Assembly: GCA_900768805.1 (NCBI GenBank)
Contig: CAAGEF010000115.1
Coordinates: 11,407-75,406 of the forward strand
Length of the DNA stretch: 64,000 nt
Direction: 5' to 3'
Origin: Clostridia bacterium
GTDB lineage: Bacteria; Bacillota; Clostridia; TANB77; CAG-508
The position numbers and the translations under genes were made by a program. Below, one piece after another: positions 4,055 to 53,760 of the stretch. The number at the start of each line of letters is the position of its first letter. The stretch's first letter is position 1. The notes below the pieces were generated by a model. It was not told the origin of the DNA. It ran no database searches and worked only from the letters and a program-made list of their open reading frames with translations.

Positions 4055-4390
4055 TTATTTCTTTAAAACTCTATAAATATCTCCGTCAACCGGACTACTA
4101 GGAAAATCTTTCGTGGAATCAACATAGATAATCTGTTGTCCTTTTGTTTTTGCATAAATTTGAGTATTTCGAAGTTCTTCTACAAGAGTCTCCATTTTTT
4201 CAGCGTCAATACAATAATCACCAAGATTATATGTATTAAAAATACTAAATGCTAATTTGTAGTTATAATTTTCAATAGCAGTATTAAATTCTTGTATCTT
4301 TGGTAAAATATCTGAATCAATATCTTTAAATGTTGGCATATTAATAATTGAACTTGGAAAATTAGAATAATTATGTGTATAATTTGCCAT
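4055..4390 (-). CDS. hypothetical protein (111 aa)
   Basis: Intact ORF. Confidence 0.3.
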   Translation of the reverse strand: MANYTHNYSNFPSSIINMPTFKDIDSDILPKIQEFNTAIENYNYKLAFSIFNTYNLGDYCIDAEKMETLVEELRNTQIYAKTKGQQIIYVDSTKDFPSSPVDGDIYRVLKK

Positions 4391-4481
4391 ATTAAATATC
4401 TCCTTTTTATTTTCAAAAATATAAGAGAAGATATAATAAAATTAATCTTCCCTCATAAAATTTTTACTAATTATTATTATT

Positions 4482-7400
4482 TTAATTTATTTCATTTGCA
4501 CCCCAAGGTGAACCAGTAGCTGAGCCATTATAATATATATGTGAAACATTATTAAAAGCATTACTTCCTATACTTGTTACACTATCTGGTATTTCAATTG
4601 AATCTAAATTAGACATATCTGCAAAACTTGATTCACCAATAGTAATAACAGTATTTGGAATATTAATAGTTGTATAGCCACTCTTATAAAAAGCATAATC
4701 ACATATTTCTATAACTGTATCAGGAATCGTATAAGTTCCTTCTTCAACTTTATTAGCATTGTATATTAATTGTGTTTTATCTTTTGAAAATAATACATTA
4801 TTTTCAACATAATAATAAGGATTATCTTCTGAAATAATTAATGTGGTTAGTTTTGGACAATTAATTAAAAAGCCACCTTTAAGATTAGACACAGAATTTG
4901 GAATATTTAAAGTTGTAAATTTAGCATTTGTAAATGTGTCATTACATATTATAGTTACTGTATCTGGAATAGAATAAGTTTCATTTACTTTATTTGCCGG
5001 ATATTTTATGAGAACAGTTTGATTTTTAGTCATAAATACTCCATCAACAGAACAATAAGAAGCATTTGAAGGATTTACATTTATTTCTTCCAAATTAATA
5101 CAGCCAATAAATGCATTTTCATTTATAGAAGTCATACTTGCAGGTATAGATATGCTCTTAACTGATGTGCAAGACAAACCTAAAGAAGCAACAGATATTA
5201 TTCCTTCTTCAAAAATAAGACTTGTTATATTATTTCGGTCAATAAATGTATTGGAATCAATTCTATTAATTGCATAATTAAAATATGAATTAAACACATA
5301 TGGAATTGTAATCTCTCCTCCATTATTATAATTATTATAACCAATAGCCCTTTTAAGCCTTTTTGCATTAAGATTAATAATTATATTATCATTTTCATCT
5401 ATAGACGCAAATTCTTTAGCACCATATAAAGTACTTAAATTATTTTTACATGCAAGTATACTAGTTTTATAAAACGCATTATTTCCAATACTAGTTGCTG
5501 AAATAGGAATAACAGCAGTTGGTAAAGAAATTGCATATTCTGTATCTAAGCTATTATAAAAAGCACAAGAATTAATAGTTTCTACACCTTCTTCTATCAT
5601 AGCATATAATATAAAACCATCAGAAAAAGCATAATTATCAATAGTTTTAACATTACTAGGTATATATATATAGTCTAAACTGTGACATCCTGAAAAAGCA
5701 TATTCACCAATATAAGTTAAAGTTTTTGGAAATTTAGGACAAGAAATAGAGCTATTATAAAAAGCATGATTACTAATCTTTACAAGATTAGTAGGCAAAT
5801 TAATATTCCTTATAGAAGCAGCAGCACCAAAACAATAAGGACTAATTTCTTTTAAAGAATTACTTAAACGCACATCTTTAAGTCTATAACAGTATTGAAA
5901 AGCATAAGAACCAATTTCTTCAACACTATCTGTCATATATACAGAGGTTAAATTTTCACATTCATAAAATGCATAATCTTGAATTTTTTTAACAGTATCA
6001 GGAATAGATACATAGGTAATATCTAAATTTCTATTAAAAGTAAGTCCTATTTTAGTAATAGTAAATTCAATATTCTTATAAGTAAAAGTAGAAGGAATAT
6101 TCACTTTACCTTGTGTTGGTATATTTGTCCATGCTAAAATATTAGAAGTTAAAGTAATGTTTGGCTCAGATACAACCTGAGTGCTAGAATTAAATGCGTT
6201 TTTTCCTATATTTGCATTTCCTTTATATAGCACTAATAATATTGAACTAGAGTAAAATGCTAATGATTCTATTGTTTCAACGCTTGAAGGTATTTTTATA
6301 ATCTCAGCTTTACATGAACTAAAAGCAGAATTTCCAATATATTGTAAACCTTCGTTTAAAGTTAATTCTGTTATATTAATATTGTTAAAAGCATACGCAC
6401 CAATTTTTTTAACACTTCCTGGAATTTCTATTTTAGTTAATCGACTACAACTAAAGAAAGCGTGATCACCTATTTCTTGAAGTGCTCTATTAAATTTAAA
6501 ATCAGTTAATGAGCATTGATTAAAAGCATAATCTCCAATATATTTTAAATTAATAGAAAAAGATATATGTTTTAAATTATAACAATCATAAAAAGTTTTC
6601 TTTTCAATTCTTGTTACATTATTAGATAAAATAACAGACTCTAGATTTTTGCATTGTGAAAAAGCAGAAGCACCAACTTTTGTGATTGTATCAGGCATTG
6701 TAACACTAATTAATTCTGTATTATTTGCAAAAGCACTTTCTGCAATAGAAGTAATTTTATATTCTACTCCTTTATACAAAAATTTCTCAGGAATAACTAA
6801 ATTTCCAGATAAAGATTCAATACCTGTCATAGTATAATTACTAGCTGATAATTCAAAATCTACTAATTCACTTTCATCATTACTTTGATAAAGTGGATAA
6901 AAAGTATACATTTCAATAGTAGATATATGATTCTCATGATCATGTGAAATGTTATGAGTTATGTATTGCTTGATCTCATTAGTATTAGCTTTTTTATATG
7001 ATATTTTCATATATTCATTTAACCATGGAATAATACTTGTCTTAATCGTAATACTATCCGTAATTCTACAATTTTTCCATAATTCATAAGCTGCGGTTTC
7101 AACAGCAGTAGAATCAGATTGAATTTCTGCATATTTATCATCAGCATAAGTCTTATTACGTTCTCCTATTTTCTGTACAACATAAGGAGAGTCTTTGATA
7201 ATTTCAATCTTTATATTATTACAGTTATATTTATATTTAAAATAATCTTTTGAATATTTATCAACTGTAACTTGTCTACCATCTACTATAGTAGTATAAC
7301 CATTCTTTATTGTTTCACCATTAGACAAAACAGCAAGTCCATGCACTTGATATTGACCTAATAAATAGAACTTTTCTGTAACAGCTTTATCAATATAACA

Positions 7401-17869: not shown

Positions 17870-18300
17870 CATTTATTATTGATTCTGCCATAATTTATTA
17901 TTATTCAAAAATGAATAAAATTTCTATTTTGTTCCTATCTTCCACACCATGAAAATACGATAGGAGAGTATTTATATTTTACTGTCATGTCAGTTTTAAT
18001 GCATTAAAAGTATACAAATATATGTATAACTATTAGAGCAGTATCATAACTCATTACAAATTATGACTTACTTCTAACTTATAGTCAGTTAATGCTCCGA
18101 CTCGTTTCGAGCGCATCTTAGAGAAGCATCGTTTCATATAACTTCTCCCCAGGGTTGTCGCTTCTGTGAGGGCTTTTCATTAATATTATTTTATTAATGA
18201 ACTATCCCTGCGGATTGTTTCCTTTCCCGCATATTGCCTGTGTACGTTTAACTTATTGTATTTCAATAAGCGTGATATAAAAAACTTATACATAAACTTA

Positions 18301-19143
18301 TATGTATAATAAGGTCTTATCACCGACGGCATATTCTTTTGAGAAGAGGACGTATTTACCTCGTCTACCGTCACCTTTTAAACTCTTAAAGATTCCAAAT
18401 ATTCCACTACCACCAATTAGAGCAGTATTTAATACACCTATATTATTAACAACATCTAAAATACTTTTAGCAAAATCAATAAAGAAATTAATAATTTCAC
18501 GATTATCATTTCCAACCCATAATTGTTCCCATGCATTTTTTAAAGAATTTATATGTGCTTCAATTGTTTCCAATTGCTTTTCTAATTCTTCTTGTGCTGA
18601 ACCTTCTGAATCTAATGCTGATTCATACACTGATTTTAACAATTCAGGTTGTTGAAGAATAGCTGCTGCAACGTTTGAACGATTTTTACCTGCTAAAACT
18701 TCTAGAAGTGCTTGTCCACGATTCGTTCCAGCTTTTTTATCAGTTTCTAATATTTCTTGATATACTTCGCTAATACTTCTTAATATTTCATAAGTTGATT
18801 TATAATTACCATTATCATTTAAAATACTTACACCTTTAAAATCATTAGACTCAACAGCAGTAAAATTACGAACTGTTTGATCAAGTTTGGATTTAGTTTG
18901 TACTACAAAATCATCAACATCTTCACCTAAACTTGCTAACTCATCTTTTGCTTCTTCTGTGCCAAGAATACGAAGAGAAATCATTTTTAATCCTGTACCC
19001 ACAGATTCAGCGTCTTGTAAAACTGAATTTCCTGCTGTTACAAGTGCCGCAGCTTCATAAATATTATTACCAGCTACTTTTAAAGTTGCAGCCGATCTTT
19101 GTAAAGCACTTGCTAATTCATCGGTCGAAATTGCATAATTATT
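18301..19143 (-). CDS. tape measure protein, exon 2 (TMP core region)
   Basis: Begins at the 3' splice site with NNYAISTDELASALQRSAATLKVAGNNIYEAAALVTAGNSVLQD...GTGLKMISLRILG, matching the TP901/TIGR01760-type TMP core, then the first hydrophobic segment. The track ORF's first 60 codons are intron read-through. 3' limit (5'SS of intron 2) approximate. Confidence 0.55.
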
Positions 19144-20920
19144 CAATCTGTTACTTTCAGTCTTTTGACTTACTGACCTATTAAATAGGCGATATGTCAT
19201 TTCTGGCATATTCTCACATTTCATAAAAAGATTATATTGTGAGTTCAGACTGTATATTACAACCTCTTGTCTTCTAATTAAATAGAAGAGTAGGTTGGAT
19301 AACTTCACTATATATGTTACCATATAAAGCCCGCAGTCGTTACGGATAATGTAATATTATTATTTTGGATGGGGATTATCCTACTTTCTTTTTTATTAAA
19401 TGTCTATATTCACTAATTTCCATATCTTGATATGGAATTAATAATTCTTTACCTAAAAATAAACTACCTTCTTTATAATTCCAATTAAAAGAATGATAGT
19501 TTTCTAAAAAACCATTATTTTTAATATATTTTAATATTAAAGCTTCACATAAATCAGGAAATTCATTTATATCTTTTTCCCATAAATATATTAATATTTT
19601 CATGTGTTAAAATATAAGTCTTTTTTTGCTTATCTTTAGTTATTGTTCTACTTTGTAATTCATTTATAGAATGTTTATTTTCATTATATTTTAATGGAGA
19701 ACTATGCTAATAATCACCCATTACTTCTATAATCAGATTGAATTTTGGCGAATAATTATCAACAGCGTAATATTTTATTATGTATTCTCGTTCAAATTTT
19801 ATATTATTTTTATTTAATATATCATTTACTTTTAATTGTATGCCAGTTTCTAATCTATTTGCTTTTCTAGAATTTTTTAGAATATTTATTCTAGCTTTTT
19901 CTTTTTGTTCTTCCGTAAATATGTAATTATGCATTATAGATTTTTCACCTACATAATATTTACTGCGATATTTCCAATAACATTCTTGACTGCAAAAATT
20001 ATGACTATCTCCATATGTATTTTTCTTATTATAATCATATGGTATTATTTTTATATTTTTCCACAATTAGTACATGTTGTCTCTATACGATTATAAAATT
20101 GACTATTTTCACCATGTCCTATTTTATTGGTTTTATCATTCCAATAACATTCTAAACTACAATATAAATATTTATGTATTTTATATACATTAGGTGGATT
20201 TATTACTTCTTTTCCACAATGTTCACATTTTGTCTTTACTAAGCACTTCTTATTACCAATTTTCAAAGTACAAAATAAATTTACAGTATCTTCTAATGAA
20301 CGATTTATTTTATTAGCTAAATTATTAATATAAATTGATTCCTCATATAATAAAAAATATAATGTTATTAAGATTTCACTTTCCGAAAAACCTTCTACTT
20401 TTGGTATACCATTGTGGCGTTTTATCCATTCACATACATTACATTTAGTTATATCTCCATTTTTATATACTTTTTTATAATACATATGCATTTTTGGAAC
20501 TTTGTGTCCACAAGTTTTACAATATAATAAACCTCTATAATTTTCAAATTCTTCTTTTGTCATAATAACATCTCCTGAAATTTATAATTATCTTGTTTTT
20601 TGTCTCATATAAAAATAAAAATCCAATGCTTCATGCAATTCATTGGATTCTTCAAATAACCAATATTCATTTGTGTTTTCTAAAATACTTTCTCTTTCAA
20701 AACCAAGAGAATATAAATATTTAGACAATCTTTTATTTTTTATTTTATATTTATTGTTCATACTAATATTTCCCCATATTTAGTATTAATAATTATATAA
20801 TATTACATTCTTTCCTCGGTTTTACCCATCTCTGGCTTTTAACCGATATAGTTATCTACTAGGATATTAATAATGATTAAAAATATCCCCATACATTACT
20901 GTATGTTTAGGCATAATTTT
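19144..20920 (-). other. group I intron 1 in tape measure gene (1777 nt)
   Basis: Exon 1 ends GAAGUAGGU and the intron begins AAAAUUAU-GCCUA. This gives P1 UAGGU/GCCUA with a U.G pair at the splice site, and P10 AUUAU with exon-2 AUAAUU. Then P2 CAUACA-GUAA-UGUAUG, P2.1 GGAUAUU...AAUAUCC, P4-P5 UCGGUU-AAAAG-CCA-GAGA-UGG-GUAA-AACCGA. ORFs sit in the P6 region. R-like ACGACUGCG and S-like AAUAUACAGUCU give P7 GACUG/CAGUC. P8 CUUCUA...UAGAAG, P9 CUCACA...UGUGAG, P9.1 CCUAUUUAAUAGG. Omega G at 19144. Confidence 0.65.
19376..20563 (-). pseudogene. intron-encoded DUF559/Vsr-like (PD-(D/E)xK) homing-endonuclease gene, fragmented into three ORFs
   Basis: 170-aa Cys-rich N-terminal ORF (20051..20563). 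A 119-aa ORF (19707..20066) ends ...GIQLKVNDILNKNNIKFEREYIIKYYAVDNYSPKFNLIIEVMGDY then TAG. It continues in frame HSSPLKYNENKHS..., then after a frameshift the 75-aa ORF (19376..19603) begins KILIYLWEKDINEFPDLCEALILKYI. Together these match the DUF559 motifs (VDF...IEVDG..H ... VLRFWE.dv). A frameshift also separates the 170- and 119-aa ORFs. Confidence 0.5.
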
Positions 20921-23900
20921 ACCTACTTCATTTAAAACGTCATTAATTTGCGATTTTTCTAAATCGTTATAAGCAGAACTCATTGCAACTAAAGCATCAG
21001 TAGCTTCATTTATACTTTCAAATTCAGATACTTGAAATAAAGTATTTGCATCTTGTGCTGATTTTTTAGCATCGTTTAATGATTCTCCAAGTCGCATAAA
21101 ATCAGCCGTACTACTTTGTATTGTACTAGCAGTAGTTCCTACACTATTTGCTAATTCAAAGCTTTCTTTTTGAAAATTTTTCAAAGTTTGAATACTATAT
21201 TCACTTACTTTATTCATTTCAGCAAGATTATTGTCATATTCTTTAATAATTTCAAAAACTTCTCGGCCATATCTTATTATATCATACATACTAAGATACA
21301 TAGATATAAAACTAGTAGTAATACTTTTAGTCCTTTTAGCTATAGAAGTAAAGAAAGAATCACCAGTTTTACCGGATTTTTGAAGCTGATAATTAAGATC
21401 AGCAAGTTCTTCATTTAATTCTCTAAATTGCTTTTCTGTACCTTTAGTATCAATTAACAATTGATATTTTTTTTCTAATGCATAAAATAATTGTTTTAAA
21501 CTAGAAGGCATAGCAGTATTGTCAGCAAGAGTCTTACGAATCTTTGACATTGTATCTCTAATTTCTTCTGGTTTTGCTAACTGGAATGCAAAATTCTTAG
21601 TTTGTGAATTGACTTCATTATATAATTTATCAATTTCTTGTTCTAATTTTTTTACATAATTTAGTTTTGTTTCATCAATATTTATTAAATCATAACTTTG
21701 CAATTCTTTGATTTTTGATTCTAATAAATCCATTTTTTCATAATATGCGTCAACATATTTGAAATCTTTTTTATTAGTGTAAAGTCTTTCATATTTTTTA
21801 TACATATTATTTGCATAATTTTTTACAGATTGCTCATAAGCTTTAGATTCACCATTTTGGAAAACTTGTCTTATACTTTCTAACTCTGCTTTAATATTAG
21901 AATTACCTAAATTTACAGTAGCATATTTTCCCTTCGCCAAATAAGCTTCTTCCCATTCCTTTTCAAGCTGTTCAAGCAAAATTTTTTCTTGAGGAATTAA
22001 AGAATCTTCATTACTTTTTAATATATAATAATCTTTTGACTGTTTAAGAAGTGTTTTATAAGCTTTTATAGCATCTTGGTTATGCTCAGTAGCAGTTAAA
22101 TCTTTATAAGAGCCAAGATTCATCTGTACTTCTTCTTGTTTAGCAGTATATTCTTTTTGTGTTTGTAATTGTTTTTCAGTTAAAACAGTAGTAGTTTTTA
22201 AAACTTGATTATATTTTTCTCTATTATTAATAAGTTCTTGAAGATTTTTTGTCTCTTGAGGTGTTAACGAGGTGAATTGAGATTTTGCCTGTAATTCTTG
22301 ATAAGACTTTTCAGTTTTTATTAAACCTTTATAAGCTTCAGAAATTTCATCAATTTTCTTTGTAGAATTATTAGTAGAAATTTCAGCGTTTCTCTTAGAA
22401 TCATTTTTGCTTGCTATAATATTGTCAATTTTTTCTTGATACTTATTTTTTATAGCAAATAACTCATTACTTTGCTTTTGTCTATCAATAATATCCTGAT
22501 AAACTTCCAATTCTTTTTTAGAAGCATTATAATTATTAATATGCTGTTTTTCTTGAGCTTTTAAAGTTGCAATTTCTTCTGAATTTTTTTGAGGATCTAA
22601 TTTTGAAATAGCAAGTTTTATTTGACAAATCTTTTCATATTCTTCTTTTTGCTTTTTTAGAAGATTAGTAGAAATTTCAGCGTTTTCTTTTTGTTTCCTT
22701 TTAGCATTTTCAGCATAAGCTTCTTGTTCAGCAAGTTTAATACTTTCTTTTAAAGAAGCATTATAAGCTTCTCTTCTAGCTTCATATTCAGCAATTAACC
22801 GTAGTTCATATTCTTGATTTCGATTATCATTAACTAATCCTTTTTCATTACGATATTCTTTTTCATCGCTAATTAACTCTTCATAGGAAGCAATCAACAT
22901 GTTATTATATGCTATATCTTCTTTTTGAGTTTTAGAATTAGTTTCTTTAGCTTTAGCATTTTTTTCTTTTAAAGAATAAATTTCTGAGATATATTTTTTT
23001 TCAATATTATAAGATTCTTTAGTTAATTTATCTTTTTCTCTTTTTTCTTCATTAGCAAAACGTTTGGCCTGTTCAGAACGTTCCTTTGCCATTTTTTTCT
23101 CAATATCTTCATAGCGAGTGGAATCTATATGACTTGAGAAAGAAGTATTATTTTTTAAATCATAATTAGTAGTCCAAGTAGTATTTTTTAATAAACCATC
23201 TAATTCCTGTTGTTCTTTTAAAACAGTTTTTACTAAATTATCTTGACTATCATAAAATTCCGTTATTTCTTTTATTGTAGACCCTTGTGCAGTTAAGTCA
23301 GATTCTAATTGTGCTGTTGCTTTTTCTAAAGATTCTGTTCTAGCAATAAGTTGAGCAGTAGTCATACTATTATCTGCTTTTGTAACATTACGAGTTTTAT
23401 GCTTTATTGCTTCTTTAGGGTCATCACTAATATTAGTAGCTGCTTCAGCAATTTTTCCACGATTTATTTCAACATTAGGTACTTTGATTTTATTATTTAA
23501 ATCTATTCCAGAAAATTTTGCGATATTATCTAATTGTTCTTTAATTATTTTTAAAGCAGAAATCAATTTACCAAGATAATGTGTTTCATTAGGAATAATT
23601 TTAGTAACATTAGCTTCTTCATTCTTAAATGCTTCTGTTTTTTCATTGACAGCATTAGTTATAGAGTCAACAGACTGTTTTATGGCTTCAAGTCCCTTAA
23701 CTTCATTACCTGTATCAGTAGTTTTACCATTTAGGACTTCATCAACTGTTAATCCTTTTTCAATAAAAGAAGAAATTTCTTTAAGCTGATTTATGACTTC
23801 TGTTAAATCTGTTTTACCAAACAAATCTTTTAATGGATCAGAATTAGAAGCAGTTTTTAATTCATTAAAGGCTTTTGTAACTTGTCCCATTGCTGCGGAA

Positions 23901-25408
23901 GCAGAAGTCCAATATTTTTTATCAATACTATTATATAAGACATCTTTTCCGTTATATTGAAGTTTAGCTTCTTTTCGCATATTTTCAATAAACTTTTGAT
24001 ATGCCTTTAATTTACCCATCATAGTATCATATTGATTAATATCAAAATCAAAAAAGTTTGTATTAATCATAGAACCGCCAGCACCTGAAAGTTTTAATTC
24101 ATCAAACAATTTTTGATATGCTTGTAATGCTAAAGAAATTTTAGATTGTATTTTTGCTTCAATTTCTTTATTCGAACCAACTTCAATATTCATATTTAAA
24201 TTAATACCTTTAAGACTATTACTTAAATCTGAAATAGCAGTATTAATTTTATCAATCGTATTTATAATTGGAGTAAGAGAATCATTAGTATTTCCGACTT
24301 CCACAAAAGCAGTTCGTATTTTTATAATTTCTTCGTGTAAATCTTTAAGAATTACTATAAGTGCATTAAGTTCTTTACCATTTTCACCGTTAGCAGTAGG
24401 AGTATAAGTATGGATAGCTTTTTGTAATTGTTCCTGAACAAATTCAATTTGATCAGTATATTTATGATAATCTTGAATACTATCTTTCATCCATTGTGTA
24501 TAGGATTCTTTATTATTACCTTTAGCTATTTCATTCTGATAATAAGTAGCACCCCATAATGCATCTTTCTGGTTTTGTTTTAATTCATCTAAGGCCTTAG
24601 AATATTTTTGAATATCTTCTAACTCATCATCCAAATCAATTTGCCAATCATAAACTTCACCTTTATTATGTTCTGCTTTTAACTTAGCTTCCATTTCTGC
24701 TTCAGTTAAAGTTTTAAATTGCTCAGTGACTTCTTCTACTGCTTTCGCTTGAGCATCATAAGCTCCGGTAGTAGAAGTAATAGAAGTAGTAAAAGTATTT
24801 TGAATATCTATTAAACTAGTTAATGTTTCTACGGTACTTTCCAATCCTTTAAAAGGTTTCGTTATTTCTGAGAGGTCAGGATATAATTTTTGTATATTCT
24901 TTAGTACATCAAAGATTTCTTTAAATTGACTAACATCTAAATTATAATTTTTAAAATTTGGTAATTCTCTCATTTGAGATACTAAGTCACTTATTTCTTG
25001 ACTTATTTCTGATATAGAGTTACTCTTACCAGTTAATGCTTCTAACGCATTTGCAAAAATTAAAACTTTTTTTGCAGATTTAGAATCTGCCAAATTATTA
25101 TCATTAATAATTCCAGCATTTCTTTCTTTAGCATATTGTTCCCATGCATTTTTTAATCTGTTAACTGCTTTTTCTTCAGTGGTAAAATATGAAGTCTTAG
25201 AATAATTTTTGTTTTTATTTATACATTTTTCATAAGATTCTAAAGCCTCTGTTAATCCTTCAATATCTTCTTTAGCCTTATAAATAGAAGAATCAGTTTT
25301 TATTTTTAATGTGGTTTCTGACATTGATTCAGAACCTTTTAATACTTCTCCAATTGCTTGAGCAATCTCTTTAGCAGTAGCACCACTTGTATTTATTCGT
25401 TCAGCCAT
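20921..25408 (-). CDS. tape measure protein, exon 1 (N-terminal ~1496 aa)
   Basis: Follows the chaperone-like genes. Long coiled-coil-rich protein. Its last residues ...INEATDALVAMSSAYNDLEKSQINDVLNEVG are the start of the TMP core motif, which continues exactly in exon 2 (NNYAIS...). The 9 codons after GGU (KIMPKHTVMYGDIFNHY*) are intron sequence. Confidence 0.65.
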
Positions 25409-26844: not shown

Positions 26845-27408
26845 TTATTCTTTATATTTACTACATGTCATATCCTGTATTTCTTCCTGAATACGACCTT
26901 CTTTTGCTTTATTTAGAATAGAGCAATTACGAGAATGACGTTTACATTTTTTACATTTTTCTTCAAAGCATTCCAATTGTTCTTGATTATCAAAGATTCC
27001 TATATAATCAACAGGATATATAATGAGTTCTATACGAGGATTTTTTGCGTCATAATAAATCCTTTGTGGACGAAAAAGAACTACATTATCATCTTTCCAA
27101 ATTAACTGTGTTTCAGTAATTGTATCATCTAAGCATTTTTCGTAATTGGAACAGTCTTTGTCAATTCGATCAAAATAAAAAACAGCATCTACATTAAAAT
27201 GCTGTTTGTCATCAACTTCTTTGTTATAACCTTGAAGTTTAACTTGTTCTTCAATGATTTTTTTAAACTTTTTTTTATAATCTTTTGCTTCCTTTGTTTC
27301 ATATACTATACTCATTGGTTTTCCATTTTTAATAATGGTTCTTACACTTGTATAATGATTTACGCTAGGAGGCATAGGAGATATCAGTTTTAATACATTT
27401 TCTGCCAT
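26845..27408 (-). CDS. rusA: RusA-family Holliday-junction resolvase
   Basis: N-terminal LISPMPPSVNHYTS matches the RusA hallmark (PPSvNhy). Size is typical for RusA plus a C-terminal Zn-ribbon extension. Confidence 0.6.
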   Translation of the reverse strand: MAENVLKLISPMPPSVNHYTSVRTIIKNGKPMSIVYETKEAKDYKKKFKKIIEEQVKLQGYNKEVDDKQHFNVDAVFYFDRIDKDCSNYEKCLDDTITETQLIWKDDNVVLFRPQRIYYDAKNPRIELIIYPVDYIGIFDNQEQLECFEEKCKKCKRHSRNCSILNKAKEGRIQEEIQDMTCSKYKE

Positions 27409-28361: not shown

Positions 28362-29384
28362 TTATAAATCTTCAAGTCCTTTTACTTCTGAACCTTTAAT
28401 ACCATCTTTTGTAAAGAATTTACCAAAAGAATCAGAAGCTTCATTGTCATTGTAGATGTTTAGCATTTCTGAGCTACTCCACCCGAAATATTCTTGAATA
28501 ACATCTGCTGGTAAACCAATTCGAAATAGTCTAGAGCATAATTGATGTCTAAGAGCATGGAAATAAAAATCTCTACCTAAAATTTTTGAAATAGTATTGG
28601 TAAAGCTATTTAAAGTACTTACTTTTAAAACTTCATCAGTATTTTGTTTAACAAATAGATACTCATTCTTTAATCCTAATCCTTTTCTCTTATTCATCCA
28701 TAAATCAAAATATTTTTTAAAATCTAATAGTGTATATTTAGTTAAGGCTTTTCCTGCTGAACCTCTTCCTTTAGTTTTTATTTTCTCCGGCGTTTTATAT
28801 AAAGCAGCATCAGTCATAATATTAGAATCATCAAAATATGAAACTTTATATCTTAATAATTCTGATTTTCTAGCTCCACCAAAAGCAGCAAGAGCAAAAG
28901 CACAAGCACATTGCAATTTTCCTTGTTCTACTAAAGTATCAAGTATCATTTGTACTTCTTCATCAGTAATAATAGTTTTATCTCTAACTACTTGTTTTAC
29001 AGGAGATTCTACTTTTCTTATAATTGGTTTATAATTTTTAATTTCATCGTCTAAAATATTCTCAATGTAATTGCTCATAGAAGATAGAGCTGATTTTACA
29101 CGAGCTAGTCTATTAGAACTCCAATTCAAATCTGACATTGCATATTTTTGAAATTTTGCAATTTCTCTTTTTGTTAATTCAACAAAATATTTGTTATCAT
29201 TATTTTCTAAGTTCCAACAGAAAAATATGTCCAAATCTGAATTATATCCATTAATAGTTCCTTTACTACGATCAATAGAAATAAGGTAATCTAAAAAATC
29301 ATTTTTTAATTCAATATTTTTCTTATTAATTTTTTTTAATTTGTCTGGAGTAGTAATATTATTATAAATAGTAGTTCTTCCCAT
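28362..29384 (-). CDS. int: tyrosine recombinase / phage integrase
   Basis: C-terminal catalytic region ...FYFHALRHQLCSRLFRIGLPADVIQEYFGWSSSEMLNIYND (R..HxxR...Y). N-terminal SAM-like core-binding domain. Confidence 0.75.
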   Translation of the reverse strand: MGRTTIYNNITTPDKLKKINKKNIELKNDFLDYLISIDRSKGTINGYNSDLDIFFCWNLENNDNKYFVELTKREIAKFQKYAMSDLNWSSNRLARVKSALSSMSNYIENILDDEIKNYKPIIRKVESPVKQVVRDKTIITDEEVQMILDTLVEQGKLQCACAFALAAFGGARKSELLRYKVSYFDDSNIMTDAALYKTPEKIKTKGRGSAGKALTKYTLLDFKKYFDLWMNKRKGLGLKNEYLFVKQNTDEVLKVSTLNSFTNTISKILGRDFYFHALRHQLCSRLFRIGLPADVIQEYFGWSSSEMLNIYNDNEASDSFGKFFTKDGIKGSEVKGLEDL

Positions 29385-30417: not shown

Positions 30418-31701
30418 TTATGTAGTTATTACTTTATTCACATTTTCTGGTTTTAAAATATTACCAGCTAAATATGACTCTATTGTAAAAGGAATATCTA
30501 TTCCCAATACTTTTCTTTTATTATTTATATATTCTTCTAATTGTTCTGGTGTGTTATTAAGTGTCCCATATGTATTATGAAAAGAACCAGGAATTGAATG
30601 GTTATGACATTCTTTACATAATAAAATAGCATTATTATCTTCGTACCTTAAATCTTTATAAGTAGAGAAATTATATATGTGATGCATTTCTTTTATAATA
30701 TTCTTAGTCTTTCCACAACATTGACATGTATAAAAACATTTTTTATAATTTCGTTTTATCCATCTTTTATATTCAAGAGAATTTCTTTCTTTAACTCGTT
30801 CAGGTGTAATTCCACCTTTCCAATTATGATTGTTTTCTTTTGATATTTTACTTAACCATAAGCATCCACAAGATTGAATTTTTTCACTTTTTAAATGACT
30901 TGATAATATACTTTTATGTTTTGTACCACAATCACAATCACAAAACCAATATGTTCCTTGTCCTTGTTCTGTTCTTTCTTTATCTAATTCTTTAACAGTA
31001 AGATAATTAAACTTTTTACCAACTAAATTTTCAATGTTATAATGAGTTTCTTTTACGCATTTGTGACAATTAAAATTATATGTAACTGAATTATCTATTT
31101 CTCTTAAATAATCTTCATGCGAATTATTTTTACATTTCCACCATACTTTTTGTTTAGAATGAGAAGTATATTCATAGGGACTTTTTTTATTTTTATCTGA
31201 CCATATTGTTACAACTTCTGGATACAAATATCCTAATGAATTAGTTAAACATACACGTTTACCAGAACAATAAGGACAATTATGCGAATGACTAAAATTT
31301 GAAGCTAGTAAGTCATAATCTGGATGTGTATTATTATTTTGACATTTTAGCCAAATTTTTTTCTTTGATGAACCTTTTGATATTTCAAAAGGTGATATTT
31401 TATTTTTTTCTGACCAAATCGTTTTTAAATAAGTTTCTCCATAATTATCTATTATATATTGTCCAATAGAATTGCATTCTGGACATTCTATTTTAGTTCT
31501 TAAACTAGTTATATTATTCAAATTTTTTTGATAAGATTTATGAATATCTCTGTTACATTTAAACCAATATTTTAAGTTTGAACAATATGAAACTTGTTCA
31601 GGCTTTTCATTATTTAAATTATAATCCCATAATTTTAAATAATCTTGTTTATTATTTTCTAAACACCATTCATAAAAACTCTTATTTATTTTATTTTTCA
31701 T
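30418..31701 (-). CDS. free-standing HNH homing endonuclease with repeated Zn-ribbon DNA-binding modules
   Basis: C-terminal HHIYNFSTYKDLRYEDNNAILLCKECHNHSIP is an HNH motif. Three W..C..GH.W-type repeats (KYWFKCNRDIH, KIWLKCQNNNTH, KVWWKCKNNSH). The true start is probably M at 31701 (RBS GGAGG); the track's upstream extension is spurious. Confidence 0.6.
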   Translation of the reverse strand: MKNKINKSFYEWCLENNKQDYLKLWDYNLNNEKPEQVSYCSNLKYWFKCNRDIHKSYQKNLNNITSLRTKIECPECNSIGQYIIDNYGETYLKTIWSEKNKISPFEISKGSSKKKIWLKCQNNNTHPDYDLLASNFSHSHNCPYCSGKRVCLTNSLGYLYPEVVTIWSDKNKKSPYEYTSHSKQKVWWKCKNNSHEDYLREIDNSVTYNFNCHKCVKETHYNIENLVGKKFNYLTVKELDKERTEQGQGTYWFCDCDCGTKHKSILSSHLKSEKIQSCGCLWLSKISKENNHNWKGGITPERVKERNSLEYKRWIKRNYKKCFYTCQCCGKTKNIIKEMHHIYNFSTYKDLRYEDNNAILLCKECHNHSIPGSFHNTYGTLNNTPEQLEEYINNKRKVLGIDIPFTIESYLAGNILKPENVNKVITT

Positions 31702-31744
31702 ATATCCTCCGTAGATATTTATATTATTTCCGATACTTAAATAA

Positions 31745-31785
31745 AAATAGAAGAGATGTTCGGAATACATCTCTTCTCAATAAGA
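31745..31785 (-). terminator. rho-independent terminator after major tail gene region
   Basis: GAGAAGAGAUGU-AUUCCGAAC-AUCUCUUCU followed by a U-run on the minus strand. Confidence 0.55.
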
Positions 31786-48648: not shown

Positions 48649-48721
48649 TCGAGTAGACAGGATTCGAACCTACGACCACTTGATCCCAAATCAAGCATTC
48701 TACCAACTGAACTACTACTCG
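48649..48721 (-). tRNA. tRNA-Pro (UGG)
   Basis: Cloverleaf: acceptor CGAGUAG/CUACUCG; D-loop AGUUCAGUUGGUAGAA; anticodon stem CUUGA/UCAAG with loop UUUGGGA; T-loop GGUUCGAAUCC. Confidence 0.8.
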
Positions 48722-52902: not shown

Positions 52903-52975
52903 AGTGGAAGTAGTGAGGTTCGAACTCACGACTCTCGCCTTAAAAGGGCGATACTCTACCAACTGAGTTACACTT
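52903..52975 (-). tRNA. tRNA-Lys (UUU)
   Basis: Acceptor GGAAGUG/UACUUCC; anticodon stem UCGCC/GGCGA with loop CUUUUAA; T-arm GUGAG-UUCGAAC-CUCAC. Confidence 0.8.
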
Positions 52976-53087
52976 CCTTATAATTGCACACCGTTTTAAT
53001 TGTATGTACAACAATAATAATTTCAAACCTAGACCTTGTTTTATGTCATAATCTAGTTTGACAGAGATTTTGTTTGATTTTATGAAA

Positions 53088-53158
53088 TACCGGATACGAG
53101 AATCGAACTCGTACTCTACGGATGAAAACCGTATGTCTTGCCTTTTGACTAATCCGGC
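53088..53158 (-). tRNA. tRNA-Glu (UUC)
   Basis: Acceptor GCCGGAU/AUCCGGU; anticodon stem UACGG/CCGUA with loop UUUUCAU; T-arm ACGAG-UUCGAUU-CUCGU. Confidence 0.7.
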
Positions 53159-53688: not shown

Positions 53689-53760
53689 CTCCCCAAGTAG
53701 GACTTGAACCTACAACAACTCGGTTAACAGCCGAGTGCTCTACCATTGAGCTATTGAGGA
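53689..53760 (-). tRNA. tRNA-Asn (GUU)
   Basis: Acceptor UCCUCAA/UUGGGGA; D-arm GCUC-AAUGGUA-GAGC; anticodon stem CUCGG/CCGAG with loop CUGUUAA; T-arm GUAGG-UUCAAGU-CCUAC. Confidence 0.8.

Follow-up and report, generated by a model that had tools for sequence, protein, structure and literature searches.

A probable mobile group I intron of subgroup IA type in a phage tape-measure gene from a Clostridia assembly

A 64,000-nt stretch of contig CAAGEF010000115.1 (Clostridia bacterium assembly GCA_900768805.1, positions 11,407 to 75,406 of the forward strand), hereafter the window, is phage or prophage DNA in which the tape-measure protein (TMP) appears in two pieces, encoded by the minus-strand open reading frames (ORFs) 20867..25408 and 18298..19323. 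Are these two genes, or two exons of one gene interrupted by an element that is removed from the RNA? The initial annotation, made from the letters of the window, proposed the latter and placed a group I intron at 19144-20920. We find it very probable that the insert is a group I intron and that a single TMP results once it is removed. The locus appears best explained as a mobile IA-type group I intron lodged in the conserved TP901-type core domain of the gene. Directly established are the exact in-frame restoration of that domain, a conserved and covarying fold, alleles with occupied and with empty sites, and a decay series of the endonuclease gene. Coordinates are positions in the window (Table 1), and a caret marks the insertion point in sequences.

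The interrupted tape-measure gene and its insertion site

The 3' end of exon 1 is ...AAT GAA GTA GGT, with its last base at 20921. The insert begins at 20920 with AAAAUUAUGCCUAAAC... and closes with ...AACAGAUUG, its last base being G19144, and exon 2 opens at 19143 with AAT AAT TAT GCA. ORF 20867..25408 continues 17 codons into the intron, where it meets a TAA stop at 20869..20867, and ORF 18298..19323 starts 60 codons within it; each is an exon running into the intron. Conceptual joining of 25408..20921 to 19143..18298, two segments whose lengths are each divisible by three, gives an ORF of 1,777 amino acids with zero internal stops. The ligation point of this join is GGU^AAU, the spliced protein reads ...SQINDVLNEVG^NNYAISTDELASALQRS... 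across it (...NEVG^NNYAIST... at the residue level), and the predicted spliced RNA, 1,777 nt shorter than the DNA, joins ...GAAGUAGGU to AAUAAUUAUGC.

Table 1. Positions of the features discussed in the text; RNA elements and the exon-intron structure are predicted
Feature	Position	Strand	Remarks
TMP exon 1	20921..25408	-	1,496 codons, 4,488 nt; C-terminal part matches TIGR01760 positions 17-133
Probable group I intron	19144..20920	-	1,777 nt; 5' splice site after U20921; terminal (omega) G at 19144
TMP exon 2	18298..19143	-	281 codons + stop, 846 nt; matches TIGR01760 positions 127-339
P1	20908..20925	-	exon UAGGU (20925..20921) with guide GCCUA (20912..20908); U.G at splice site
P2	20905..20890	-	CAUACA/UGUAUG, GUAA loop; 100% paired, compensatory changes in 5/6 pairs
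P2.1	20888..20862	-	GGAUAU/AUAUCC; 100% paired, compensatory changes in 4/5 pairs
P3, 5' strand	20856..20850	-	GAUAACU; then J3/4
P4	20846..20816	-	UCGGUU/AACCGA, encloses P5
P6, 5' strand	20815..20813	-	GGA
P6a, 5' strand	20809..20797	-	13 bp; 3' partner 19360..19348; read from sequence
P6b, 5' strand	20777..20771	-	AUGGGGA; 3' partner UCCCCAU 19375..19369; read from sequence
57-aa ORF, intact	20588..20761	-	Pfam DUF5659, 25.9 bits (cutoff 23.6)
Homing-endonuclease pseudogene (putative)	19376..20563	-	I-Bth0305I-like Vsr-fold nuclease, N-terminal Cys-rich repeat region
3' catalytic half	19144..19375	-	from P6b' to omega G
P6'	19346..19344	-	then J6/7 GUAAC
P7	19338..19334	-	GACUG
P7.1 hairpin	19330..19307	-	GUAA loop
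P3'	19304..19298	-	
P8	19296..19261	-	
P7'	19252..19248	-	CAGUC
P9	19243..19213	-	
P9.1	19211..19192	-	
P9.2	19190..19176	-	
Additional hairpin after P9.2	19170..19159	-	
HNH-endonuclease-like ORF (450 aa), upstream of TMP gene	30418..31770	-	
Tyrosine-integrase-like ORF, upstream of TMP gene	28362..29384	-	
RusA-like resolvase ORF, upstream of TMP gene	26845..27408	-	
tRNA gene	48649..48721	-	
tRNA gene	52905..52977	-	
tRNA gene	53088..53158	-	
tRNA gene	53689..53760	-	

Hidden Markov model (HMM) searches, which the initial annotation had suggested as a check, bear out the join. They were run on a 433-aa stretch around the junction, which falls between its residues 152 and 153. TIGR01760 gives a single match of 91.1 bits (cutoff 28.8) that bridges the junction, covering residues 46-399 and profile positions 17-338 of 349. 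The exon-1 piece alone matches profile positions 17-133 at 23.0 bits, under the cutoff, and the exon-2 ORF alone positions 127-339. PF10145 likewise bridges the junction as a single match of 61.2 bits (cutoff 33.2), the separate halves scoring 22.5 and 33.1 bits. The product of the interrupted gene is a TP901-type tape-measure protein by TIGR01760 and PF10145.

Homologs without the interruption give the same boundaries. Of 5.8 billion proteins searched, many match the spliced query over more than 90% of its length, and the junction is continuous in all 13 uninterrupted homologs that were aligned (32-84% identity), in which G76, N77 and N78 are invariant. Over 600 nt, an intron-less allele, L131, and the spliced exons align free of gaps; L131 has ...GGT AATAATTAT as one unbroken sequence and reads ...GAGATTGGT^AATAATTAT... 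around the insertion site. HMM bridging, the continuity of homologs and the gap-free L131 alignment together go far beyond what chance would give and indicate that the 1,777 nt were inserted precisely into a conserved, otherwise continuous site, within the invariant G-N-N motif of one compact HMM domain. The in-frame join, the HMM matches and L131 thus uphold the exact boundaries first proposed, as well as the assignment of both ORFs to one stop-free TMP. For annotation, one 1,777-aa TMP should replace 20867..25408 and 18298..19323; a tail length calculated from either fragment alone would be wrong.

At least ten other TMP homologs start their homology exactly at the first exon-2 residue and carry short leaders ending in ...ESNR(L/K/T), which would be the translated 3' end of an intron. 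Relatives of the insert were gathered from the contigs of such homologs and by scanning viral contigs for GTAACGACT...TAYAGTCTG. Ten further inserts lie at exactly G^NN, in TMPs that are, where measured, 37-71% identical to that of the window over exon 1 and 33-73% over exon 2. Those of L003, L004, L077, L104 and L118 carry ORFs and span 1,455-1,781 nt, that of L005 (547 nt) has most of the ORF region deleted, and those of L007, L008 (275 nt), L010 and L038 are ORF-less and measure 275-350 nt. All same-site inserts are preceded by GGU and end in G, and this omega G stands directly before AAY AAY in 11 of 11 inserts, that of the window included. The intron is also present in two contigs near-identical to the window (97-99%), L001 and L002.

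These short inserts bear on a different reading of the locus, in which the TMP is truly split into two genes by a free-standing endonuclease cassette, nothing is spliced and the tail is built from two polypeptides. Each half is indeed a callable ORF with an ATG start, public gene callers treat exon 2 as a separate protein of 300-303 aa (P0003, P0004), and split genes beside free-standing endonuclease genes are known in T4-like phages. However, the ORF-less inserts of 275-350 nt at the identical site show that no endonuclease is needed for the interruption, the leaders of the exon-2 ORFs vary in length and sequence except for the translated intron 3' end, and the break falls inside the invariant G-N-N of one compact domain. 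Together with the fold described below, which has 48 compensatory pairs and a guide that covaries with the exon, these observations make a genuinely split gene very unlikely.

A conserved fold with group I anatomy

The window intron and the ten other same-site inserts were aligned with 6-nt exon flanks, the distal part of P6 being removed where it exceeded 80 nt. Given no prior structure, RNAalifold recovers P1 (with its U.G pair), P2, P2.1, P3 enclosing P4-P5 and P6, a P7-P3' hairpin, P9, P9.1 and P9.2, with compensatory double changes in 45 of 65 pairs. The same alignment was used to test a full group I scheme, comprising 13 helices and 73 pairs, in which P8 is included and P7 forms a pseudoknot. 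Standard pairs occupy 97.2% of its 753 cells. Column shuffling lowers this to 79.6%, with 0 of 500 shuffles as high as the real alignment, and displacing the 3' partners by 1-3 columns lowers it to 28-42%. Changes on both sides are seen in 48 of the 73 pairs, with 24.6 expected. Pairing per helix ranges from 88 to 100%; P7 is fully (100%) paired and has a single covarying pair (G-C in seven inserts, A-U in four), and P3 is 91.9% paired with six of its seven pairs covarying. The two strands of P6b, as read from the sequence, also change together in relatives, to UAUGGA/UCCAUA in L003 and AUAGGGAA/UUCCCUAU in L004.

The topology is P3[P4-P5][P6]-P7-P3'-P8-P7' with a P3/P7 pseudoknot, followed by P9. 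The elements follow one another as P3, a 3-nt J3/4, P4, an A-rich J4/5, P5, P4', P6, J6/7, P7, P3', P8, J8/7, P7' and P9, an order that, with the junction lengths, identifies a predicted group I core. The P7-P3' hairpin has 10 bp and a GUAA or GCAA loop; it is 93.5% paired, with compensatory changes in eight of ten pairs. In Michel & Westhof's scheme the hallmark of subgroup IA is one or more extra helices (P7.1/P7.1a or P7.1/P7.2) between P7 and P3'. By its single extended P7-P3' hairpin the intron would be of the IA type, an assignment that makes no choice between IA1 and IA2.

P1 provides a further test at the 5' splice site. The initial annotation paired UAGGU with GCCUA around a splice-site U.G, and this helix stands up to comparison: the U.G (column pair 6-19) is found in 10 of 10 scored inserts, and L008, unscored through a gap artefact of MAFFT, has the same pair in its sequence GUGGGU^..GCCCA. 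The pair 3-22, between exon position -4 and the guide, is G-C in seven inserts, A-U in three and C-G in one, the exon base being a synonymous third-codon position. Exons ending in GUA or AUA GGU go with the guide GCCUA, those ending in GUG or CUG GGU with GCCCA and that ending in GUC GGU with GCCGA, so that the intron guide tracks a synonymous base of the exon. Among the other elements named in the initial annotation, P2, P4-P5, P7, P8, P9 and omega G are likewise present and have now been tested for covariation; the proposed P10 holds up poorly, as discussed below.

From this anatomy the following course of splicing can be proposed. The transcript would fold into the P1-P9 core, its guide GCCUA pairing with UAGGU, the last bases of exon 1. 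An external guanosine would attack after the wobble-paired U20921, and the released 3'-OH of exon 1 would then attack after the terminal G19144, ligating GGU to AAU. Translation of the spliced mRNA would give the full-length 1,777-aa TMP, and unspliced RNA would give only a truncated protein ending at the stop 17 codons into the intron.

Inteins, group II introns and IStron-like composites can all interrupt conserved phage genes too, and group II introns in phages are the subject of a recent report (PMC12350094). An intein is contradicted by the stop of the exon-1 frame 17 codons into the insert and by the length of 1,777 nt, not a multiple of three. Scans of the window and of the intron region found no group II or other Rfam family, and there is no reverse transcriptase or transposase among the Pfam and PHROG matches of the intron ORFs. 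Boundaries with U.G and a terminal G, like the P3/P7 pseudoknot, are characteristic of group I, and it is hardly conceivable that any of these other elements accounts for the insert.

The heptamer AUGGGGA occurs twice on the minus strand of the intron, at 20886..20892 (the P2/P2.1 junction) and at 20771..20777 (P6b). Either copy could conceivably pair with UCCCCAU (19375..19369), giving an alternative long-range pairing.

Genes of the P6 loop and the decay of the endonuclease

The loop closed by P6a (13 bp) and P6b (AUGGGGA/UCCCCAU) contains the ORFs of the intron, a 57-aa DUF5659 gene followed by an endonuclease pseudogene, both left out of the initial annotation. The endonuclease gene is intact in L001, which has the same intron. 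Its 397-aa product has as best PDB match 3R3P, the structure of I-Bth0305I, which is encoded in the recA group I intron of Bacillus thuringiensis phage 0305phi8-36 and is the founding EDxHD (Vsr-fold) member (PMC3239194). This is its only meaningful PDB match, and the two systems would share a Vsr-fold nuclease domain encoded in a loop of a phage group I intron. The invariant D269 and H287 align to the catalytic D196 and H213 of I-Bth0305I. The KDK motif around D222 of I-Bth0305I recurs, being resembled by the invariant D311-K312, which HMMER does not align there. Pfam DUF559 scores 17.1 bits on the endonuclease ORF, under its cutoff of 20.6. The N-terminal half of the protein has repeated Cys4 zinc-ribbon-like units, CxxC...CSxEC, with weak matches to zf-FCS, TRASH and Zn_Ribbon_TF and a match to 2DAS at E=1.7e-3. 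Overall, the Pfam and PHROG matches of the intron ORFs comprise DUF5659, DUF559/Vsr-like and zinc-ribbon domains and 'homing endonuclease'. The I-Bth0305I ORF differs in interrupting P5, whereas the ORFs of the window intron lie in P6, and in having an N-terminal NUMOD/HTH region in place of the zinc-ribbon-like units; no NUMOD match is found in the 397-aa ORF. The window lineage also has a separate small ORF before the nuclease gene.

Other ORFs occupy the G^NN inserts of L077 (725-2353) and L118 (5800-7254), coding for 460 and 316 aa, respectively, with Cys-rich repeats and an ...IEYDGxQH... motif. They have no BLASTP similarity detectable to the 397-aa ORF, and it seems that a single intron lineage has exchanged one nuclease gene for another of unrelated origin.

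Compared with L001, the window endonuclease gene carries three lesions: a 1-nt deletion at 20062/20063, a TGG to TAG change at 19709..19707, affecting the Trp directly before H287, and a 5-nt deletion at 19590/19591. Reassignment of the stop codon was considered for the in-frame TAG and rejected, as L001 has TGG there and the gene also has two frameshifts. Besides the lesions, the window copy differs from that of L001 by four other substitutions. In L002, 1,051 nt of the ORF region are cleanly deleted. The RNA parts of the intron are 100% identical among the window, L001 and L002, the last two coming from two other samples. That near-identical genomes hold the gene in intact, decayed and deleted form agrees with the cycle of invasion, decay and loss reported for elements of this type (cited in PMC2504315), and the trio forms a clean natural series of the life cycle of a homing endonuclease. 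In this cycle the endonuclease of an intact copy would cut intron-less TMP alleles at G^NN, and repair would copy the intron in. Mismatches between the window and L001, about 5% in distal exon 1, vanish over the 204 nt that precede the intron; the 1,777-nt intron has 5 and the opening 500 nt of exon 2 have 2, a pattern consistent with recent homing and co-conversion of the flanks.

A decayed endonuclease gene, in a sequence that comes from an assembly rather than from a tested phage, could also mean that the intron is a group I relic that no longer splices, leaving the TMP, and hence the phage, defective in this genome. Against this stand the 73 tested pairs, intact in the window bar one mismatch each in P5 and P7.1, the identity of the RNA parts with those of L001, whose endonuclease gene is intact, and of L002, and two exons that are still open and conserved. 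Loss of the endonuclease with splicing kept is, moreover, an expected stage of the homing cycle, and TMP introns lacking complete endonuclease genes are among those described in PMC2504315. A dead intron is accordingly most improbable. We favour a splicing intron that, its endonuclease gene being dead, would persist in the window as a splicing-only passenger.

The near-identical trio also draws attention to the uncharacterised small DUF5659 protein that travels with the endonuclease. Homologs of the 57-aa ORF form 249 clusters; the 120 listed are mostly 67-85% identical to it. Its conservation is 50-80%, against 36-68% for the neighbouring endonuclease. All 14 contexts examined inside TMP introns (L132-L145) have it 22-26 nt ahead of the endonuclease gene, and it is intact where that gene is dead (window) or deleted (L002). 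An AlphaFold model with a pLDDT of 93 has the order beta-alpha-beta-beta-alpha. A Foldseek comparison of this model with PDB returns nothing significant (best E=0.7), and a literature search found no mention of DUF5659. This higher conservation, fixed spacing, survival beside a dead or deleted endonuclease gene and confident fold could mean that the protein is an obligate, unrecognised partner of the endonuclease (for example a subunit for target binding or regulation, or a helper in splicing), belonging with an Rfam-invisible intron lineage that has colonised at least five positions of the TP901-type TMP core in gut phages. We offer this wider picture tentatively and consider it rather doubtful. 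The 5' strand of P6b (AUGGGGA) holds a likely Shine-Dalgarno sequence, GGGGA, which precedes the start codon of the 57-aa ORF (ATG at 20761) by 9 nt, so that the folded intron, as read from its sequence, would hide the ribosome-binding site of this gene.

Recognised group I introns, relatives at other sites and genomic context

Several points weigh against a mobile, splicing group I intron. The Rfam family RF00028 (Intron_gpI; gathering score 50 bits), proposed as a check by the initial annotation, gives no match on the window at the gathering score, nor on the intron region 18900..21200 at E<=10, and by the gathering score the intron falls outside the family. A large ORF insert could account for such a miss. 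Shorter relatives are missed as well, however: RF00028 matches neither L002 nor the ORF-less 275-nt L008 at E<=10, nor L005 and L007 at E<=1, nor, at the gathering score, 12 other TMP loci. An nhmmer profile built from the 11-insert alignment in turn reaches none of the RF00028-positive loci discussed below. P10 is weak: 6 contiguous bp are possible in the window, AU-rich and offset by one exon base, and 2-9 bp among the relatives, the start of exon 2 being so nearly invariant that covariation is uninformative. The endonuclease assignment has only modest E-values (1.3e-3 from the single sequence, 2.5e-4 from a 4-sequence profile), and E170, the first residue of the EDxHD motif, aligns to the invariant Q243, Gln rather than Glu. 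Finally, we infer splicing itself from sequence comparison, as we do the activity and target of the endonuclease and any role of the small ORF.

The comparative structure being strong, we do not take the Rfam result against the intron; it would have been a false negative. The group I assignment rests on anatomy, covariation, splice-site rules and short P7 core motifs, and not on Rfam. The core motif pair GUAACGACU...UAYAGUCUG has matches in at least 120 viral loci, and in 6 of 16 motif-bearing loci RF00028 scores above gathering (58.9-92.5 bits), each match overlapping the motif. In the Rfam alignment of one of them, L024 (92.5 bits), one motif of the pair falls on each strand of P7, the first on the 5' and the second on the 3' strand, and P7 is followed by a P7.1/7.2-type insertion; this alignment places the R/S motif pair of the intron on the P7 strands. 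Such RF00028 members from phages share with the window lineage the core order J6/7-P7 (..ACGACU.), P7.1/7.2-type insertion, P3', P8 and J8/7-P7' (..AUAUAGUCU); unlike them, the window lineage scores under every RF00028 reporting threshold. The lineage profile finds 27 of 120 motif loci, every TMP locus among them, and as it finds none of the RF00028-positive loci, and RF00028 none of the TMP loci, the introns would form a distinct sub-lineage. Automated pipelines will keep calling such gut-phage TMPs split or truncated, and a dedicated covariance model of the lineage would correct this.

Group I introns in tape-measure genes have been known since 2008, and the window intron joins that kind. 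TMP-IVS1, TMP-IVS2 and TMP-IVS3 of Bacillus cereus-group prophages were described by Tourasse & Kolsto (PMC2504315) as in-frame introns of type IA1 or IA2 that have a stop near their start, some with an endonuclease gene and some lacking one; an intron in the TMP of Lactobacillus phage JCL1032 is cited there. The window intron shares with these the host gene, the in-frame position, the IA type and a stop that closely follows the 5' splice site. Further traits in common are several alternative sites within one TMP, an endonuclease gene that is kept or lost and a guide that adapts to its target. As that source describes them, the B. cereus-group introns differ in the one endonuclease family named for them, GIY-YIG, the window cassette combining DUF5659 with an EDxHD-like nuclease; they come from B. 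cereus-group prophages and the host phages of the window lineage from gut metagenomes. Current understanding is not overturned. Modestly new are a lineage invisible to RF00028, a fixed and widespread cassette of DUF5659 and endonuclease, and relatives at several other positions of the TMP domain. Among 50,697 phage records, nucleotide relatives were found neither by megablast with the region nor by distant blastn with a mini-intron.

Related introns occur at other positions of the TP901 core domain in TMP genes of other viral contigs, about 54 residues upstream of G^NN and about 38, 44, 50, 61 and 120 residues downstream (L118, L058, L104, L067, L032, L065). These additional positions agree with break classes at query residues ~190 and 196-204 among the protein matches. 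Some TMP genes bear two or three related introns together: L118 has inserts at 4178-5634 and 5800-7254, and L058 and L104 each have three within about 65 codons (e.g., 6708-6451, 6320-6085 and 6010-5704 in L058). L032 is interrupted downstream and its G^NN site is empty. The lineage profile also matches L112, L114, L082, L107, L041, L033, L126, L092, L042 and L044 at 70-147 bits; TMP exons are undetectable at these loci, and the intron lineage would therefore not be confined to TMP genes. In the window, a scan for the P7 motif pair gives one site only, that of the intron itself, and no second such intron.

The ORFs near the TMP gene match an integrase, a RusA-like resolvase, an HNH endonuclease and a tail protein. 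An HNH/integrase/RusA-like neighbourhood is unusual for a tail module. Four tRNA genes lie elsewhere in the window (Table 1).

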